5,983 bases of DNA from a virus. Position numbers and translations under genes: made by a program. Positions 1-5,983 of the stretch are shown in pieces. The stretch lies in the IMG/VR virus record IMGVR_UViG_3300030387_000005, positions 1-5,983 of that record; one strand, 5' to 3'. The notes under the pieces are model-generated. The model had not been told where the DNA came from. It ran no database searches and saw only the letters and a list, made by a program, of their open reading frames with translations. Positions within the stretch are counted from its first letter, which is position 1. Each line of letters begins with the position of its first letter.

Positions 1-1005
1 CTTCTTCATTTGCTTCTTTATCACTCTTTCTTTTGTCTTACATTGCTCTGCAAAGTCTGCATTTTCGTATTTAAGCCGGTTCTCTGCTATGGCTGCTGCT
101 TGTCTGTTCTGTTTAATTCTCCATAATCTTTGTGGGTTTTCAGCTTCCATCATTTTTTCATAATAGCGTGGAATTTGTGCGCGTTTGCCGTTTGTGCATT
201 GGATATAGCCTTGTTTCCAGATTTCTGCTTTGTGCTCTTGGTAATAGTGGTCGCCTAAACCCGGCTTAAGGCTCATGCATGCGAATGGTTTTGTTTGCCC
301 TAGTTCGTAGTATGCGTTTGCTTTTTGACCGTCTATCTCATACATTTTTTTTGTGACGTATCCTGCAACATATCTATACGTTTCTGGTACTGCTTGTGCT
401 ATCTGTATTTGACCCATGCCCCAGATGTTTGCTAGCCATTTACTTGTGAAATATCCGTTGTGCTGTATTTTGTATAGGTGCTCTAGGTCTGTTGGTCTCC
501 ATCCATATAGAATCATATGGAAATGTGGTCTAGCTGTCTGCTCTCCGTATTCTCCCGCCACAAAATAGCGCAATTTGCCCCCATAAGCCTTCCTGAGGCG
601 TTTTAAGAACTTTTGAACGTCAGTATATAGCAAAATTTGGACGCTTTCAGGGCGCTTCTCTCCCGGCTTCCAGACGTATTGTACTTTTCGCATGATTTCA
701 CCTGTGTTTACTATCATGCCCGGTACATGTTCGTCATCATAGGTTAATGTGATAAACCAAACTTCTTCTTTTGGATAGTCTCGTGCTTCTAATTCTATTC
801 GTGTTGTCCAGTCCTCCCTTTGTCTGATTCTGCACCCGATGCACTGTCCGCATGGTATCAACATGATATCTTTTCTGTACATCAAATCTTCATATTTGAG
901 CTGTTTTCCCGCTAACTGAGAAAAGCGGGAGAGTGAATACACCCTCCCGCTAACGTCTTTATCGTTCGGGTTGTACAGCCTTATTAATGGCTTGTAGCAA
1001 CTCAT
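1..1005 (-). CDS. Replication initiator protein VP4 (rolling-circle Rep). This is the N-terminal 335 codons; the ORF continues across the circular junction to 5884..5870, for 339 aa in total.
   Basis: The minus-strand ORF starts with ATG at 1005..1003, which overlaps the VP2 TGA stop as ATGA. The SD-like AGGTGA lies 9 nt upstream. The translation MSCYKPLIRLYNPNDKD... contains the rolling-circle motifs FITLTYDDEH (motif I), RPHFHMILYG (HUH, motif II) and YVAGYVTKK (motif III with the catalytic Tyr). The frame stays open to position 1, so the ORF track missed it only because it crosses the window edge. Confidence 0.88.
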   Translation of the reverse strand, partial: MSCYKPLIRLYNPNDKDVSGRVYSLSRFSQLAGKQLKYEDLMYRKDIMLIPCGQCIGCRIRQREDWTTRIELEARDYPKEEVWFITLTYDDEHVPGMIVNTGEIMRKVQYVWKPGEKRPESVQILLYTDVQKFLKRLRKAYGGKLRYFVAGEYGEQTARPHFHMILYGWRPTDLEHLYKIQHNGYFTSKWLANIWGMGQIQIAQAVPETYRYVAGYVTKKMYEIDGQKANAYYELGQTKPFACMSLKPGLGDHYYQEHKAEIWKQGYIQCTNGKRAQIPRYYEKMMEAENPQRLWRIKQNRQAAAIAENRLKYENADFAEQCKTKERVIKKQMKK

Positions 1006-1865
1006 TTCAGGTAATCACCTGGCTTTCGCTTTTCTCCGTATGACCCCGTTTTATCTTGCGGTTTCATGCTTCTGTTTTGTTTTGCGCTTTTTTCTGTTTT
1101 TGCTGTTGCATCTGTAATGACCTTACTCGTGTCGTTTCCTACTTCTGTAAGCGTCTTTTGTAGTCCGTATGGCGTCATGTGTGTTGAACTAAGCATCTGT
1201 TGCCAGCTTTGTGCTGCATTGTACCAGTCGCTTTTGCTCCAGCTGCTGCTTTCGTATGCGTTCGGCACAAATCCTCCACTTCTGCTTACTCCTAGTGCGC
1301 TGCTGCTTGCAAGTCCCATACTTGCTCCGCTGATTGTTCCTGCACTTCCTCCCGGTGTGCTTGCGCCGCCGTTTGAGAATGCTAGGATAGGGTTAAGTCC
1401 CGCTTTTTTCATGTCCTCAACGGCTCGCTGGTATGCTGTGCTTGACATGTGTTCCTGCCATTCACGGTTTGCTAGTGCTTCTGCACTGTTGTAGTTCATT
1501 GCTACGCTGTTTTCAATGTGGTTGTATACGCCTTGCATGATTGCTTGCAAGGTGTTGTAACCCATCTGTTTTAACATGCTCTGACTGTTATATTTACCTT
1601 GCATGGCTGCTTCTTGCCCTTGGTATGCGTATGCCTGCTTTAGCCAGTCGTTGACCTGTTGCACGTTTGTGCCGGCTTGACTTCCGCTTTCGGAGTGTCC
1701 GCCGCCTTGGCTTATGCTGCCGCCGCTACTTTGGCTATTGCCTGTCTGTCCCCATCCGCCAAACGCTCCGGCTACGTTTTTAGCTGCTCCTGCAAAAGTT
1801 CCGATTGTGTTTGCCACGTTTCCCGCTACGTTTAGTGCTGTTAAGAATCCTGATAATGCACTCAT
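1002..1865 (-). CDS. Minor capsid / DNA pilot protein VP2 (287 aa).
   Basis: The 287-aa ORF has an ATG at 1865..1863. The sequence is Gly/Ser/Ala/Gln-rich and low in complexity, as is typical of gokushovirus VP2, and includes a conserved-looking segment AYQRAVEDMKKAGLNPILAF. It sits between VP1 and Rep, and its stop overlaps the Rep start. Confidence 0.75.
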   Translation of the reverse strand: MSALSGFLTALNVAGNVANTIGTFAGAAKNVAGAFGGWGQTGNSQSSGGSISQGGGHSESGSQAGTNVQQVNDWLKQAYAYQGQEAAMQGKYNSQSMLKQMGYNTLQAIMQGVYNHIENSVAMNYNSAEALANREWQEHMSSTAYQRAVEDMKKAGLNPILAFSNGGASTPGGSAGTISGASMGLASSSALGVSRSGGFVPNAYESSSWSKSDWYNAAQSWQQMLSSTHMTPYGLQKTLTEVGNDTSKVITDATAKTEKSAKQNRSMKPQDKTGSYGEKRKPGDYLK

Positions 1866-1903
1866 TTAAAAATAGCCCGGATTTCTCCGGGCTTCCTCCT
1901 TTC
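1866..1903 (-). promoter_or_regulatory. Stem-loop in the VP1-VP2 junction, which may be a partial terminator, an attenuator, or a translation-coupling element.
   Basis: An 8-bp stem, AGCCCGGA (1874-1881) paired with TCCGGGCT (1886-1893), encloses a 4-nt loop. On the mRNA it is followed by ATTTTTAA and then the VP2 ATG. The VP2 SD, AAGGAGG (1903..1897), lies 5' of the hairpin, 31 nt from the ATG when the sequence is unfolded. Confidence 0.45.
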
Positions 1904-3586
1904 TTACAGTTTGTACAAGCCCGGTACGCTGTACAGTGGCATCCGTCTTGTGGTTTTGTTTGCTACACGGATTGCGCCGAAAAATTGGGGTTCATTTTGC
2001 ACGATGAGCGTGCGCGCAATCTCGATTTTTCCTTCTTCCATCCAGTCTTGCGACAGTGTTGGTACGCTGCTATAATTGTCAGCATAATGCCAGAAATCCA
2101 GCGTTCCGGTTGCGTTACTTCTCATGAGGCCGGATACCCGGTTAGGCTTCATGCGATAGTCTGCCCAAGCTTCCTGATATCCGAAGGTTTCTTCGTCACT
2201 TGCATTGCCGGTTAACATGATTTCTTTTTTCTTTACCGGCTGCTCACCTAAGTTTGCGAACTGTGGCACATAGTAGTCAAGCCTGTCACTTCTGCTCCAG
2301 AAGCGTTCCAAGCCTTGCTGATAACTGCGATTGTGTCGCACACAACATACGCCGATGACGAAACCATGCTCCTCAAAAGATTTTGTGAAGCTGCTTTCAT
2401 TGATTGGCGTTACCGACATTGCACCGGTTTCACCAATTGGAGTGTCATTGTTGGTCTGCTGTCCGCTGGTTTGCACGATTTGGTTAATGTTTACATGATA
2501 TCTGCCACCGCCAAGGTATTCCGGCACCTGCACGGTTTTATCGCTGATTACCACGTTCCACAGTGCTTGTACCTGTTCACGGTATCTGCTGCCGCCTCTT
2601 GCTAGTGCTTCGTAGTACTGTTGTACCGCTATGGCTTTTCGTAAGTCGTTGATGGTTGCTGCAGTAACTGTGCTAAGGTCTGCATACATCCAGCCGCCCG
2701 TACCTGCTTCACCGGATGTATTTTCTGTTCCGGTAAATTGCATCTTCTTTTTTTCTCCCGGGGATCCTGTTTCTTGTGTATAGACTAGACTTCCGGGTTT
2801 GTTCAATGTACTTGTTGACCCCAGTACCATTTGTACCGGTGACGGAAAATCTTCGTATTCCAAAGATTTATCGCCTAATCTTATAGGTGCGTTACCCTGC
2901 ATTGGCATCGTCACTGCCGGTCCGCGCTGCGGATAAGGTAGGCAGCTGGTAAAGTAGTCGTGGAATTTGTTTACCGGTAACAGGTTTCCGCCTTTGTATG
3001 CGTTGTTTTCTGCTTCTTGTACCCAATCTTCTTTTCCAAACTCGTATACCAAGTTGGTATCGTCTGTTTTCAGCGTTGCTATGTTATCTACGTTTTCGTC
3101 TCTGAAAAATTCATTCCAGATTTTTACATACGCTCTTACGGGTAGTGCGTTAATCATAAACGGTTTTTTGATTTTGGTTGGCACTCCCATATAGTCTAGT
3201 ACGGACCTTTCGTCCGGTTTTGGTGTGCTATCCGTCCCATTGATTATGAGTTTTGGCGTTGCATATTCTTTTTTTGGCATCCATGGCGTTGCTTCTACTT
3301 CTCCCATGAAGTATTTGAAGTTGTCCCACAGAATTCTGTTGGGACAGTAGAAGTAGTAGAAGTCGATAAATGCATCGTCCATTACCGGGTACTTCGGCGT
3401 GGTCATGCGGATGATAGCTGATGTATCCACGCTGAAGGTATCGCCCGGTAATACCTCGTCAACATAAAATGGAATCAGCTTGCCAGAGTCGAACGTTGTT
3501 AAGATTGTCTGGTCGCGGTTGAATCGCGTTCGGCTCGCTCTCATTTCTGGAATTTGATTGAAGTGCCTTTCATTGTTTCGGTTCAC
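1904..3586 (-). CDS. Major capsid protein VP1 (560 aa) of the Microviridae, a homologue of protein F. It uses a GTG start.
   Basis: The N-terminus RHFNQIPEMRASRTRFNRDQTILTTFDSGKLIPFYVDEVLPGDTF matches the conserved gokushovirus VP1 N-terminal signature, which has the form TTFDxGxLIP....EVLPGDTF. The GTG at 3586..3584 is preceded by AGAGGAGGAAG and overlaps the VP3 TGA stop as GTGA. An in-frame TAA lies 21 nt upstream, so no ATG start is available. Confidence 0.9.
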   Translation of the reverse strand: MNRNNERHFNQIPEMRASRTRFNRDQTILTTFDSGKLIPFYVDEVLPGDTFSVDTSAIIRMTTPKYPVMDDAFIDFYYFYCPNRILWDNFKYFMGEVEATPWMPKKEYATPKLIINGTDSTPKPDERSVLDYMGVPTKIKKPFMINALPVRAYVKIWNEFFRDENVDNIATLKTDDTNLVYEFGKEDWVQEAENNAYKGGNLLPVNKFHDYFTSCLPYPQRGPAVTMPMQGNAPIRLGDKSLEYEDFPSPVQMVLGSTSTLNKPGSLVYTQETGSPGEKKKMQFTGTENTSGEAGTGGWMYADLSTVTAATINDLRKAIAVQQYYEALARGGSRYREQVQALWNVVISDKTVQVPEYLGGGRYHVNINQIVQTSGQQTNNDTPIGETGAMSVTPINESSFTKSFEEHGFVIGVCCVRHNRSYQQGLERFWSRSDRLDYYVPQFANLGEQPVKKKEIMLTGNASDEETFGYQEAWADYRMKPNRVSGLMRSNATGTLDFWHYADNYSSVPTLSQDWMEEGKIEIARTLIVQNEPQFFGAIRVANKTTRRMPLYSVPGLYKL

Positions 3587-3981
3587 TTTTCTTCCTCCTC
3601 TTTTTTAGTTTCCGCTTTTGGCTTTTCCGTTGCCATTTTTTGCAGTTCCTCAAGTTTCATGGCGTTTGCCTGTGCGGTCGCTACCATGCGGTGATATTCA
3701 TGGATGTTTTGCGGAAATTCTGTAATATCCGTGTATGTGTCGTTTAATGCTCCTTCTGACAGGCTTTTCAGAAACTGCGGGTCAAAACTTGCTTTTCGGA
3801 CGATGTTTTTGATATCACATTCGTCCGCATAGCTTTCAATTTCCTGCTGGATGTCGATTGGTGTAGTTTCTTGCAGCACTTCTTGCCCTTTTTCGTCCTT
3901 CGTCCAGACGTATTGTTTTTGGAGCTTTTCGCCTGATTTAGAAAAGAAGGGCTTTCGCCCCTCTTCGTATCGTTTATTCAT
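3583..3981 (-). CDS. Internal scaffolding protein VP3 (132 aa, counted from the RBS-supported ATG). The open frame extends upstream to 4089.
   Basis: The ATG at 3981..3979 is preceded by GGGAGGG with an 8-nt spacer and overlaps the TAA of the upstream ORF. The protein is acidic and lysine-rich, and its C-terminus KAETKKEEEEK and its position immediately 5' of VP1 are typical of gokushovirus VP3. Confidence 0.7.
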   Translation of the reverse strand: MNKRYEEGRKPFFSKSGEKLQKQYVWTKDEKGQEVLQETTPIDIQQEIESYADECDIKNIVRKASFDPQFLKSLSEGALNDTYTDITEFPQNIHEYHRMVATAQANAMKLEELQKMATEKPKAETKKEEEEK

Positions 3982-4213
3982 GCGGCTTGCCCTCCCATAC
4001 TTTTTCCTTGCAGTTCTCAAAAGCTCCGGTCTCGTCGTTAAATTCTGCCAGCTTGAAGCCGGTGTAGTCGCCCGGCGCCTGACCCACAAAGGTTTTTTCG
4101 TCCTTCGCCATTATGTTGCACATACGTGCAAAGGTTGCATTGCTCTTGTTCTCGCCTACCCATGCGTAGCATTTTGCCACGCTATCCCACAGGCCAAAAT
4201 ATTCATGCTTCAT
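3974..4213 (-). CDS. Hypothetical protein (79 aa) of unknown function.
   Basis: The ATG at 4213..4211 is preceded by AAGGAG with a 9-nt spacer. Its stop is coupled to the VP3 start through the sequence CATGAATAA. The product MKHEYFGLWDSVAKCYAWVGENKS... contains three Cys residues, and I recognise no family for it. Confidence 0.6.
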   Translation of the reverse strand: MKHEYFGLWDSVAKCYAWVGENKSNATFARMCNIMAKDEKTFVGQAPGDYTGFKLAEFNDETGAFENCKEKVWEGKPHE

Positions 4214-4232
4214 GATATCTGTTCTCCTTTTT

Positions 4233-4355
4233 TTACAGCCGGATGCCGCCGCGCATAGGCTTTTGGCTAAGGTTGATGCTTTTTGTTTTTCTTGCTGTTA
4301 CGTTAAACATACGGCGGTCTTTTGCGCCGCTCATGCTTTTACGATGTCGTGCCAT
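4233..4355 (-). CDS. Small, highly basic, putative DNA-binding protein (40 aa). It resembles the gokushovirus ORF8 protein and the phiX174 J protein, and it is absent from the ORF track.
   Basis: Manual translation of the minus strand gives MARHRKSMSGAKDRRMFNVTARKTKSINLSQKPMRGGIRL*, about 30% Arg/Lys. The ATG at 4355..4353 is preceded by AAGGGAG with a 7-nt spacer and overlaps the last 17 nt of the upstream gene. An alternative internal start at 4334 would give a 33-aa product. Confidence 0.55.
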   Translation of the reverse strand: MARHRKSMSGAKDRRMFNVTARKTKSINLSQKPMRGGIRL

Positions 4356-4560
4356 TGTCGTACTCCCTTCTAAGTAACTCTAACTGTATGTCGTTTGCCA
4401 GTGCTTTCATAGACCATATATTGTCTATCATTGCTTGTGCATCTTCGAGCCTTGACATTTTTTTAAGCAGCCTATAACTTTTTTCTATTTCTTTGTATAG
4501 GCTTTCCACTTTTGTTCTTAGTGCTTCTTCGGTCTGGTCGCGTATATTCCATGTTTTCAT
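4339..4560 (-). CDS. Hypothetical helical, possibly coiled-coil protein (73 aa from the RBS-supported ATG). The ORF track extends it to 4575.
   Basis: GGAGGG lies 7 nt upstream of the ATG at 4560..4558 (MKTWNIRDQTEEALRTKVESLYKEIEK...). The upstream ATG at 4575 has no SD and sits only 2 nt after the preceding stop. Confidence 0.55.
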   Translation of the reverse strand: MKTWNIRDQTEEALRTKVESLYKEIEKSYRLLKKMSRLEDAQAMIDNIWSMKALANDIQLELLRREYDNGTTS

Positions 4561-4577
4561 TCTAGTGCCCTCCATGT

Positions 4578-4694
4578 TTACTTCTCTTCGCCGATGTTGT
4601 CGTGCAGCGCATGATAGATCTCGTCAAGCTTTTCGAGAATCTGCATCATAATGCGGATTGCCTGTTTGACGTCCTTAATGGAAATCAGTGCCAT
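4578..4694 (-). CDS. Hypothetical small protein (38 aa), below the ORF-track size cutoff.
   Basis: Manual translation gives MALISIKDVKQAIRIMMQILEKLDEIYHALHDNIGEEK*. A strong SD, AAGGGGG, lies 7 nt upstream, embedded in the 3' end of the peptidase gene. The ATG lies 2 nt after the peptidase TAA stop. Confidence 0.5.
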   Translation of the reverse strand: MALISIKDVKQAIRIMMQILEKLDEIYHALHDNIGEEK

Positions 4695-4696
4695 TG

Positions 4697-5089
4697 TTAC
4701 ACCCCCTTTCTGTATTTTTTTCCGTCTCGCACATCAAAGTGTACCCAACTGTTGTATACGATAATGCCGCATCCATTCGGGACGATTTCATCCAGTTTTT
4801 TGGCAAGCTCTTTTGTTTTCATTCCGTTTACCTTTATGTCCGCTGCCATGCCGCGCATGTGGTAGCTGTATTTTGCTCCACTGCATTTTGTGTTCCACCA
4901 TGGCGTTCTGTATCCGCTGGTGATAATGATTGGTTTTCCTAGCTTGTTTCGTAAGATATCCAGAATGGTGCACAGGTAGTCGTCTATGAATACTACCTGG
5001 CTGCCGTCTTGACAAGCAAATTCTTTTACTTTGAAGTACTGTCCTACTTTTTCGTTTGAGCTCGTGTCCATGATATAGCTTTTAATCAT
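4697..5089 (-). CDS. Zinc peptidase of family M15, of the M15A / Peptidase_M15_3 type, a putative peptidoglycan hydrolase (130 aa from the ATG).
   Basis: The product carries SGYRTPWWN ... YHMRGMAADIKV ... WVHFDVRD, which matches the spacing of the H-x-D ... H zinc-ligand pattern and the SxHxxGxAxD motif of LAS-type M15 peptidases. GGAGG lies 9 nt upstream of the ATG at 5089..5087, which overlaps the upstream stop through ATGATTAA. The ORF-track start at 5119 is a TTG extension. Confidence 0.75.
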   Translation of the reverse strand: MIKSYIMDTSSNEKVGQYFKVKEFACQDGSQVVFIDDYLCTILDILRNKLGKPIIITSGYRTPWWNTKCSGAKYSYHMRGMAADIKVNGMKTKELAKKLDEIVPNGCGIIVYNSWVHFDVRDGKKYRKGV

Positions 5090-5273
5090 TTCCGTCAACC
5101 TCCGTGAAGTATACTTCAACCGTTTCGACTCTTTTTAGTGAATACAATCCCGGGTTTTCTTCTGCGTATGCTTTTGCACGTTTTTTCGCGTCCCTTGGCT
5201 CTTCTGTCATTCTGAGCACGATTGTTGTGGTTGCATCGCTGTTTAATGCTCTGAGTTCGTAGTTGTGTTTCAT
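5082..5273 (-). CDS. Hypothetical protein (63 aa). It is the first gene of the operon.
   Basis: The ATG at 5273..5271 is preceded by AAGGGGG with an 8-nt spacer and lies about 22 nt downstream of the predicted transcription start. The ORF-track extension to 5330 would begin inside the promoter -35 box, so that start is rejected. The product is MKHNYELRALNSDATTTIVLRMTEEPRDAKKRAKAYAEENPGLYSLKRVETVEVYFTEVDGND. Confidence 0.55.
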   Translation of the reverse strand: MKHNYELRALNSDATTTIVLRMTEEPRDAKKRAKAYAEENPGLYSLKRVETVEVYFTEVDGND

Positions 5274-5301
5274 TTTAATTGCCCCCTTTTTTTCTGATTT
5301 C

Positions 5302-5330
5302 ATTATATCATATGTCAATAGGGATTTCAA
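5302..5330 (-). promoter_or_regulatory. Sigma70-type promoter that drives the minus-strand operon covering the whole genome.
   Basis: On the minus strand the sequence reads TTGAAA, a 17-nt spacer, then TGaTATAAT. That places the -35 box at 5330..5325 and the extended -10 box at 5310..5302. The predicted transcription start is near 5295, followed by a 5' UTR carrying AAGGGGG upstream of the first ATG. Confidence 0.6.
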
Positions 5331-5415
5331 TGATTTTGCTGTTTTGTAATATATTTGTAACTTTCTCTTGTAACCTGGTTTTGCCCCTTTGGTTTGAAAG
5401 CGCTTTAGCGCTCTG

Positions 5416-5442
5416 CCGTGCGGAGCGTATGCGGAGCTCGGC
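5416..5442. repeat. Tandem direct repeat of TGCGGAGC, flanked by the inverted pair GCCG and CGGC.
   Basis: TGCGGAGC occurs at 5420-5427 and again at 5430-5437, 10 bp apart. The adjacent sequence AGCGCTTTAGCGCT (5398-5411) is two copies of the palindrome AGCGCT. Confidence 0.4.
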
Positions 5443-5470
5443 TAATTCTTTCATTGTTAGCGCTGTGCGC

Positions 5471-5646
5471 GTTTTCAACACTTTCAACACTTTCAACAGG
5501 TTTTCCACAAAATGTTGCACAATGATTTTCGTTATTTTGACGAACTTTCAACATTTCAACAAGTTTTCAACAAAACTTTCAACATTGTTTTTCGCTTTTT
5601 ATTTACGCTTTAGCGTTAAATTTTAGTACTTTTCAACTTTTCCACT
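5471..5646. repeat. Iteron array of the heptamer TTTCAAC on the plus strand, which is GTTGAAA on the coding strand.
   Basis: Three tandem 9-mers, CTTTCAACA, lie at 5473-5497. Four more copies lie at 5546-5552, 5554-5560, 5565-5571 and 5577-5583, and another at 5631-5637. Variants TTTCCAC lie at 5502-5508 and 5640-5646. An inverted copy lies at 5394-5400, and the promoter -35 box at 5325-5330 is a further copy. Confidence 0.7.
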
Positions 5647-5720
5647 GCCTCTACTACTACTCCTACAACAAGTTATATATTATACGGCGCTTGTGAGCTT
5701 GCGAACAATAGCGCCGAAAA

Positions 5721-5768
5721 GGCCGCGCGTGCGCGCGTGCGCGCTTCGCGCGCGTGCGCACGCGCGAT
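5721..5768. repeat. GC-rich palindrome made of alternating purines and pyrimidines. It has hairpin and Z-DNA potential.
   Basis: The sequence is GGCCGCGCGTGCGCGCGTGCGCGC TT CGCGCGCGTGCGCACGCGCG. Positions 5724-5743 can pair with 5766-5747 over about 20 positions, giving 18 Watson-Crick pairs and 2 G-T pairs, with a CTT loop. It is an isolated GC island in an otherwise AT/T-rich control region. Confidence 0.65.
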
Positions 5769-5820
5769 AAAGTATAGCTATTTGATAGACTGAATAGACG
5801 GATACATGGAGTCTTTAGAC

Positions 5821-5860
5821 GACAAAAGCCCAGTACCTTACTTGATAGGTACTGGGCTAG
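5821..5860 (-). terminator. Rho-independent terminator downstream of the Rep stop. It marks the end of the operon that runs across the circular junction.
   Basis: A perfect 11-bp inverted repeat, GCCCAGTACCT (5828-5838) paired with AGGTACTGGGC (5847-5857), flanks an 8-nt loop. On the minus strand it is followed by TTTTGTCGTC. It lies 10 nt after the Rep TAA stop. Confidence 0.6.
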
Positions 5861-5869
5861 GTGACACTG

Positions 5870-5983
5870 TTAAAGTGTCCCCCTCTTCTTCATTTGCTTC
5901 TTTATCACTCTTTCTTTTGTCTTACATTGCTCTGCAAAGTCTGCATTTTCGTATTTAAGCCGGTTCTCTGCTATGGCTGCTGC
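5870..5983 (-). CDS. C-terminal end of the same VP4/Rep gene. Positions 5885-5983 duplicate 1-99, and the unique part, 5884..5870, encodes the last four residues RGTL plus a TAA stop.
   Basis: Position 5885 aligns with position 1, giving 99 nt of exact identity. Reading the minus strand from 5983 continues in frame through ...KKQMKK, then RGTL, then TAA at 5872..5870. Confidence 0.8.
   Translation of the reverse strand, partial: AAAIAENRLKYENADFAEQCKTKERVIKKQMKKRGTL
5885..5983. repeat. Terminal redundancy: an exact copy of positions 1-99. It indicates a circular genome of about 5,884 nt opened arbitrarily inside the Rep gene.
   Basis: Base-by-base identity of 5885-5983 with 1-99 was read directly from the sequence. 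Confidence 0.9.

Follow-up and report, generated by a model that had tools for sequence, protein, structure and literature searches.

The filamentous phages f1 and M13 (Ff) carry their minus-origin hairpins (B and C) on the packaged strand, in the main intergenic region and immediately 5' of the hairpin at which the plus strand is nicked, and host RNA polymerase uses these hairpins to prime the complementary strand. Here we describe a candidate for an element of this kind in a 5,983-nucleotide (nt) stretch of viral DNA, positions 1 to 5,983 of the IMG/VR record IMGVR_UViG_3300030387_000005 (hereafter the window). The window holds a circular gokushovirus (Microviridae) genome of 5,884 base pairs (bp), bases 1-99 being exactly repeated at 5885-5983, and all its genes lie on the - strand. 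The element is a GC-rich palindrome of alternating purines and pyrimidines, for which an initial annotation had proposed a role as complementary-strand origin. Single-strand origins are secondary structures of one particular strand that host enzymes make use of, and both those of rolling-circle plasmids and the phiX174 ssi site serve to turn single-stranded DNA (ssDNA) into the replicative form (RF) (PMC5703833, PMC5714925). The origins ssoA, ssoU, ssoT and ssoW of Firmicutes rolling-circle plasmids are non-coding, act on the displaced strand in one orientation, rely on host enzymes only, and are dispensable but beneficial (PMC5703833). In phiX174 and G4, viral-strand hairpins in non-coding DNA are recognised by host priming proteins (PMC9865509 section 3.8; PMC5714925), and for other microviruses it has been proposed that intergenic hairpins act as minus-strand origins (PMC9865509). 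We found nothing specific in the literature on this palindrome, on a gokushovirus origin, or on negative-sense microviruses or origin inversion.

As in Ff, the palindrome is a stable hairpin 5' of a putative nick hairpin on the presumed packaged strand, and the replication protein (Rep) of this phage, VP4, belongs to the same Pfam family as the Ff gene II protein (PF23343). It differs in consisting of one alternating, near-perfect GC stem closed by a 3-nt loop, as opposed to the two imperfect hairpins of Ff, in lacking a promoter-like -35/-10 mimic, and in having a function that is putative. The n' (PriA) primosome assembly site of phiX174 and the G4 ori-c come from the same virus family as this phage; no sequence relationship to them is shown, the hosts probably differ, and in phiX174 and G4 the viral-strand origin (inside gene A) is far from those sites, whereas the palindrome here is 60 nt from the putative nick. 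With ssoA, ssoU, ssoT and ssoW it has in common a non-coding position and an orientation-specific structure on what would be the displaced strand. However, ssoA is about 160 nt long with conserved RSB and CS-6 motifs, while the palindrome measures 43 nt with a 3-nt loop and holds no such motifs in a comparable arrangement: TAGCGT, which we take to be the CS-6 hexamer of ssoA origins, occurs only at 5611-5616, about 110 nt off and within a small palindrome at 5605-5616, and the RSB consensus was not searched for.

The palindrome has three parts:
5724-5743, + strand: left arm CGCGCGTGCGCGCGTGCGCG, 20 nt, strictly alternating purine/pyrimidine
5744-5746, + strand: loop CTT, 3 nt
5747-5766, + strand: right arm CGCGCGCGTGCGCACGCGCG, forming 18 Watson-Crick and 2 G.T pairs with the left arm

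The observation of a GC-rich alternating inverted repeat able to form a hairpin of about 20 bp is confirmed, far beyond chance, at a total length of 43 nt (about 48 nt had been given) and with arms that are 90% complementary. On the + strand both non-Watson-Crick positions are G.T, leaving an uninterrupted 20-bp stem; on the - strand both are A.C mismatches. In line with the initial annotation, the folding energy is remarkable on the + strand, where 5690-5790 folded as DNA reaches -34.9 kcal/mol (z -3.9, with 0/200 shuffles as stable), compared with -30.3 kcal/mol (z -2.0) on the - strand. In a 60-nt sliding scan no other hairpin of the genome is as stable as the palindrome (-33.0 kcal/mol; genome mean -4.8, standard deviation 3.3), and a strictly alternating purine/pyrimidine run of 20 nt is met once in the window, where 0.01 would be expected by chance. 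Its flanks are AT-rich. It is not isolated, as had been thought, but is the second of four hairpins within 5685-5879, since the + strand of 5640-5884 folds into hairpins at 5685-5716, at the palindrome, at 5827-5858 and at 5863-5879 (z -8.1). What the initial annotation missed is that the hairpin pairs best on the strand antisense to every gene, so that a virion-strand role fits only if this clade packages the non-coding strand.

No credible open reading frame (ORF) covers the palindrome, and Rfam covariance models gave no match at E<=1 in the whole window. Two predicted signals of the gene strand bracket the region:
5858-5827, - strand: predicted terminator-like hairpin, the only one called by the terminator scan
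5330-5302, - strand: predicted sigma-70-type promoter, the sole strong one (11/12, extended -10)

Because it lies between them, in a space of about 490 nt, the palindrome is predicted to be untranscribed. The initial annotation had also suggested that it modulates a nearby promoter, yet none is predicted within about 400 nt, the only strong one being that at 5330-5302.

Relatives were gathered from eight GenBank records, an IMG/VR pattern scan and a capsid-based search, the nearest GenBank records being gut gokushoviruses of human and pig at about 84% identity. Many of the genomes stem from a single large gut dataset (IMG 3300045988) and are interrelated, and the counts given here are thus not counts of independent events. 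An alternating GC palindrome stands at the same place, between a conserved AT-rich box and a conserved hairpin, in 8/8 GenBank relatives, with arm sequences that differ, and most IMG/VR relatives also carry a palindrome of different sequence there. It is retained, with compensatory changes, across genomes that share only about 40% VP1 identity. Our first set comprises 37 unique palindromes with arms of 13-32 nt, loops of 3-8 nt (CTT, TTT, CTAT, TATT, ATTA, TCTA and similar) and an alternation of 0.95-1.00. Read on the strand opposite the genes, their pairs are 643 Watson-Crick, 122 G.T, 7 A.C and 1 other, with a single transversion-type mismatch among the 773. Arm adenines stand opposite T in 79 of 86 cases, though T makes up only about a quarter of the pyrimidine positions, and the 643 Watson-Crick pairs compare with 537+-8 (maximum 565) in 2000 alternation-preserving shuffles. 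A formal pair count was made on 22 distinct palindrome versions of the 17+3+17 form. Standard pairs amount to 99.2% in these versions, against 96.4+-0.4 in shuffles (0/500 as high); five pairs have changed on both sides, and there are 13 doubly changed cells against 3.6+-1.5, a number that 0/500 shuffles reach. Because pairing and covariation exceed the shuffles, it is the base pairing that is under selection, beyond purine/pyrimidine alternation. Conservation of the structure rather than of the sequence, one of the tests that the initial annotation had set for its proposal, is hence found in the relatives, together with covariation. The T.G wobble six pairs from the loop (5738, 5752) is invariant in 22/22 palindromes with a 3-nt loop and is never C-G, which might reflect recognition and not mere tolerance.

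The palindrome also varies in form. Genome L147 (about 5100-5190) has the left arm and loop duplicated, L096 has a truncated right arm, L042 has collapsed to a half-site, and L098, L066 and L087 lack the element altogether; these variants are consistent with slippage, palindrome instability or assembly problems.

The imperfect pairs are strongly polar: the 122 G.T against 7 A.C of the first set, on the strand opposite the genes, become 242 against 7 in a wider set of unique palindromes, and the reverse-complement alignment has only 82.1% standard pairs. The hairpin of the non-coding strand is the more stable one in 36/37 palindromes (means -26.0 and -20.9 kcal/mol). Since this DNA is predicted to be untranscribed, the polarity would imply that the + strand is single-stranded DNA at some stage. 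We rejected mutational skew as the sole cause, because four-fold sites, taken from every coding-strand ORF of 150 codons or more, show a skew of about 4:1 and intergenic DNA one of 1.4:1, as against the 17:1 to 35:1 observed; an equilibrium calculation makes A.C about 14-fold rarer than expected from the intergenic skew. A control hairpin of reverse polarity within the VP4 gene also makes skew alone insufficient, and skew remains a partial confounder:
924-951, - strand: VP4 hairpin, in - sense AGCGGGAGGGTG-TATT-CACTCTCCCGCT

This control lies 55-80 nt into the coding sequence and has conserved, covarying stems. Its wobbles in 13 unique versions number 19 on the coding strand against 2 on the other, contrary to the skew, and it is probably an mRNA structure.

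About 60 nt downstream of the palindrome, the + strand carries an origin-like hairpin with two associated features:
5827-5858, + strand: origin-like hairpin AGCCCAGTACCT-TACTTGAT-AGGTACTGGGCT, with the loop TACTTG^AT at 5839-5846 (^ marks the presumed cut)
5844/5845, + strand: putative VP4 (Rep) cleavage site G5844^A5845 in TTACTTG^ATA, context CCTTACTTG^ATAGG
5860-5867, + strand: GGTGACAC box, directly 3' of the origin-like hairpin, present as (G)TGACAC(C) in both gokushovirus classes

Read on the - strand, the hairpin at 5827-5858 and its T-run look like the terminator of the gene cluster. Chp2, SpV4 and phiMH2K have a non-coding hairpin on the coding strand with different stems and a loop of the form ..(C/T)TACTTG(A/T)T.., and the homologous elements are located as follows:
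2907-2944 of Chp2 (L297), coding strand
about 500-540 of SpV4 (L298), coding strand
about 3296-3335 of phiMH2K (L299), coding strand

The phiX174 record places the origin of viral-strand synthesis at the A after CAACTTG, position 4306 (CAACTTG^ATA), and the gokushovirus loops have ACTTG^AT in common with this cleavage core. The likeness to the phiX174 origin, CAACTTG^ATATTAATAAC, therefore concerns the ACTTGAT of the loop TACTTG^AT in the 5827-5858 hairpin and not the palindrome; the gokushovirus motif differs in sitting in a hairpin loop that is followed by TGACAC(C), and here also in lying on the strand opposite the genes. The composite element, consisting of a stem, a loop with CTTG(A/T)T, a stem and then (G)TGACAC(C), occurs in both arrangements and is clearly homologous between them. 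A hairpin search with fixed thresholds found it in 129/138 unique gokushovirus genomes, and in the window and 101 others it lies on the strand opposite all genes (the gene-inverted class).

The base composition of synonymous sites follows the strand of this element. Where it is on the non-coding strand, the four-fold sites of the coding strand have A>T in 102/102 genomes; where it is on the coding strand, they have T>A in 23/27, the 4 exceptions being G-depleted and phiMH2K-like. The compositions are mirror images of each other, as can be seen from the coding strands of the window (A.49, C.19, G.21, T.11) and of L333 (A.11, C.31, G.17, T.40). On a quick neighbour-joining tree of VP1, built without support values, the hairpin changes strand about three times. 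The strong A>>T / T>>A mirror reverses along with it, even between adjacent clades of the same gut dataset. The virion polarity of the classical gokushoviruses is textbook knowledge, and the motif strand is always T-rich and A-poor, as in phages whose virion strand is known. Because the origin-like hairpin is homologous to virion-strand hairpins and the synonymous-site composition is mirrored, the + strand of the window is quite probably the strand that is nicked, displaced and packaged, though it is antisense to all genes.

Taken together, the palindrome polarity, the orientation of the origin hairpin and the mirror composition indicate that a major clade probably has its genes on the non-packaged strand. 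The full proposition, that in a large clade of gut gokushoviruses the origin is inverted relative to the genes, the antisense strand is packaged (a 'negative-sense' microvirus) and the palindrome acts there as the complementary-strand origin, is possible but somewhat doubtful. Microviridae are described as +ssDNA viruses (PMC10707117, Table 1), and a single ORF on the complementary strand has been called 'highly unusual' (PMC3394797). The strand polarity of the palindrome is of value mainly in having exposed this apparent gene/origin inversion. Should it be true, genome orientation and annotation would change, as would the reading of strand-specific virome data; transcription and rolling-circle replication would run head-on in this clade, and minimal origin parts for gokushovirus-based replicons would be at hand. 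A genome has already been built synthetically for EC6098 (PMC7062461). For gokushoviruses, which are among the most abundant gut phages, two testable cis-elements are offered here, the candidate VP4 cleavage site TTACTTG^ATA and the conserved hairpin, which is the best candidate for a second-strand origin.

The palindrome is present in 78/102 genomes of the gene-inverted class and in 1/27 of the other class. It lies 5' of the origin-like hairpin on the motif strand in 77/79 cases, at a median start-to-start distance of -102 nt (range -406 to +61). Both classes have structured DNA at this place: the mean folding energy of the 120 nt adjoining the origin-like hairpin on its 5' side is -22.0 and -23.5 kcal/mol against genome backgrounds of -12.9 and -10.6, with a median z of -2.5 and -4.4, compared with +0.4 and +0.7 for the 3' flank (127 genomes, L009-L373). 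As both classes share a structured 5' flank, the alternating GC palindrome is the form taken in this clade by a stable hairpin that gokushoviruses generally have upstream of the nick site. Chp2, SpV4 and phiMH2K show no comparable palindrome, their best 60-nt hairpins reaching about -15 kcal/mol. Many 'coding-class' genomes have a small GC hairpin that abuts the origin-like hairpin.

Our best reading of the palindrome, which we hold tentatively, is that of a single-strand (complementary-strand) origin. It pairs fully on what we presume to be the virion strand and less well on the other, is conserved in structure and not in sequence, and lies in non-coding DNA predicted to be untranscribed, as single-strand origins do. 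Its stability, conservation, position and strand are what the original proposal of a complementary-strand origin would lead one to expect, and we infer a virion role for the + strand and, for the palindrome, a role in priming second-strand synthesis. With G5844^A5845 as its starting point, rolling-circle synthesis would proceed in the direction of rising coordinates; the palindrome, lying shortly before the nick site on the 5' side, would belong to the final 120 nt or so of the old + strand displaced in each round. As soon as it is displaced, it would form a 20-bp GC stem that single-strand-binding protein (SSB) could not melt, a duplex island in SSB-coated viral ssDNA, which could recruit host RNA polymerase, primase or PriA for priming. 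Both incoming and newly displaced viral ssDNA would be converted to the RF by way of this priming.

Several points weigh against a single-strand origin. The assignment of the virion strand is indirect, and no priming signal was identifiable. The element is dispensable or redundant, because 24/102 genomes of the gene-inverted class are without it and from L098 it has been cleanly deleted; the L029 clade has it on the 3' side of the origin-like hairpin. Composition may also contribute to the wobble polarity: the coding-strand four-fold sites have A.49 and T.11, a skew of about 4:1 that points the same way as the wobble bias, A.C is only about 4.5-fold rarer than this four-fold skew predicts in a simple equilibrium calculation from the counts, and by family the polarity is only about 53:6. 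The interrelatedness of the genomes noted above counts on the same side. Finally, the palindrome could equally be an accessory part of the double-strand origin.

As such an accessory of the double-strand (leading-strand) origin, the palindrome would serve in VP4 Rep binding, replisome pausing, or termination and re-initiation, either on the displaced strand or as a cruciform. It lies 60 nt 5' of the putative nick hairpin and is the last structured DNA before a round ends, gokushoviruses in general have stable hairpins on the 5' side of the origin-like hairpin, the adjoining iteron array is a possible Rep-binding locus, and rolling-circle replication origins often have several inverted repeats with separate loci for binding and nicking (PMC5703833, PMC5714925). 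We nevertheless find this role rather unlikely: the nick hairpin is anywhere between about 47 and 406 nt away, one clade has the two in reverse order, the element is missing from a quarter of the related genomes, and the strong single-strand wobble polarity is unexpected for a cruciform, in which both strands fold. The palindrome was rejected as the nick site itself, its loop being too small and motif-free (no Rep cleavage motif is conserved in the loops of 3-4 nt, CTT, TTT and CTAT), and the hairpin with the motif is the neighbouring one at 5827-5858. A different role, part of which the initial annotation had raised, is that of a non-B structure (Z-DNA or cruciform) of the duplex in supercoiled RF, which would absorb superhelical energy and tune origin melting or transcription. 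Tracts of (CG)n and (TG)n of about 20 bp are classic Z-formers, and the palindrome holds two alternating GC-rich runs of 20-21 nt, as a Z-DNA-forming tract would have. Its composition and symmetry fit both Z-DNA and cruciforms; the arms alternate perfectly in essentially all homologues, the 773 pairs contain but one transversion-type mismatch, the flanks are AT-rich, and unrelated phage contigs have single alternating tracts of a similar kind in their non-coding DNA. Yet the pairing is conserved far beyond what alternation would yield and exceeds every alternation-preserving shuffle, so that selection for alternation alone is insufficient, and it reaches into non-alternating flanks (e.g., ATTGCG...CGCAAT, TTTCGCG...CGCGAGA). 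Strand-asymmetric wobbles, moreover, have no explanation in duplex DNA, and no promoter is predicted nearby. Perfect alternation can be a by-product of evolution through G.T intermediates, that is by transitions only, and would therefore be no independent evidence for Z-DNA. Covariation and single-strand wobble polarity point to a single-stranded hairpin and not to a structure at the duplex level. A Z-DNA role has the right sequence but is unsupported, since alternation alone fails to explain the data, and we consider a non-B function unlikely.

It is very unlikely, in our judgement, that the palindrome has little or no function and is a self-propagating CG repeat or palindrome, expanded by slippage in a tolerant non-coding region, with an asymmetry that stems from mutational skew. 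The spread of arm lengths (13-32 nt) and the duplication (L147), truncation (L096), collapse (L042) and losses (L098, L066, L087) would suit a neutral repeat, and the compositional skew runs in the same direction as the wobble bias; but one position is kept, with compensatory changes, across about 40% VP1 identity, A.C mismatches are rarer than skew predicts, the VP4 control hairpin has the opposite polarity, and structure at this place, as measured from the origin-like hairpin, is a general feature. A barrier to transcription, or back-up terminator, that keeps transcripts of the gene cluster from reading through into the origin and the iterons is most improbable. In the direction of transcription the palindrome does lie just downstream of the predicted terminator (5858-5827), and GGCCTTTTC comes after the - strand hairpin in window-type genomes. 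However, only 5858-5827 is called by the terminator scan, no U-run follows the hairpin in L002-, L004-, L006- and L007-type genomes, and the sense strand of the transcript would be the strand with the A.C mismatches. An intrinsic terminator or RNA element was rejected for the palindrome, which was not called by the scan, has no T-run conserved in relatives and has no Rfam match. A prophage or attachment site was likewise discarded, no VP1 relative being found among 185,579 bacterial species genomes, nor any prophage relative in that collection; matches to the arm pattern in bacterial genomes are mostly from high-GC genomes (chance) or microsatellites and are unrelated. The palindrome is also unlike the XerCD site dif (described in PMC7062461), and a dif-like site was rejected.

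Beside the palindrome and the origin-like hairpin, the non-coding region contains the following features:
5685-5716, + strand: upstream hairpin GGCGCT/AGCGCC with an 18-nt loop containing GCTTGCG, directly 5' of the palindrome
5863-5879, + strand: small hairpin GACACT-GTTAA-AGTGTC, overlapping the VP4 stop codon (opposite strand)
5471-5682, no strand: TTCAACA iteron module with CTACTACTACTCCTACAACAAGTTATATATTAT box, 212 bp, 7 iterons, adjoining the hairpin cluster

The stem at 5685-5716 covaries (GGCGCT/AGCGCC, AGCGCT/AGCGCT, GGCACT/AGTGCC) around a conserved loop and is found only in the window-type subgroup. TTCAACA has 8 copies in the window against 1.0 expected. The (CTA)n / TTATATATTATA box, the AT flank described in the initial annotation, is present at 5650-5684 and belongs to the 212-bp module; its suggested role as a DNA unwinding element is unsupported, the module being found in both orientations. 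With identical breakpoints, the module is inverted in L102, L074, L098, L040 and MG945447. The proteins of L102 are otherwise 95-97% identical to those of this genome, and the two module orientations, which are only about 76-79% identical, look like two exchangeable alleles. We rejected the orientation of the module as what sets the packaged strand: composition and palindrome polarity are unchanged whichever way it points and track the genes and the origin hairpin. Inspected by eye, the AT box agrees with E. coli dif at about 17/28 positions, and on the gene strand it reads AACTTGTTGTAG, like the phiMH2K loop. A strand-specific role of this box is unlikely, because the module occurs in both orientations. 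Two small related non-coding palindromes, GCGCTTTAGCGC (5400-5411) and ACGCTTTAGCGT (5605-5616), could be operator-like sites.

Two of the genes on which the comparisons above draw are placed as follows:
1904-3586, - strand: VP1, major capsid protein
from 1005 across the junction to 5870, - strand: VP4, Rep protein, matching PF23343

The genome also has a Chlamydia-phage-type scaffold gene, ORF5 and a peptidase M15 gene. The last, of the M15_3 kind, lies at 4697-5119 on the - strand (E 2e-22), and such acquisitions were described by Roux et al. 2012 (PMC3394797). The promoter at 5302-5330 (- strand) is near-consensus (TTGAAA-17-TGaTATAAT) and closely precedes the first small ORF; this promoter and strong Shine-Dalgarno sequences point to a Firmicutes-like host. 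Outside the gokushoviruses, single alternating (CG/TG)n tracts of 25-50 nt were seen in AT-rich non-coding DNA of unrelated contigs from viruses or metagenome-assembled genomes (L101, L107, L112, L233), and long (GCGT)n microsatellites in a metagenome-assembled genome of the Metamycoplasmataceae (L217, L221).

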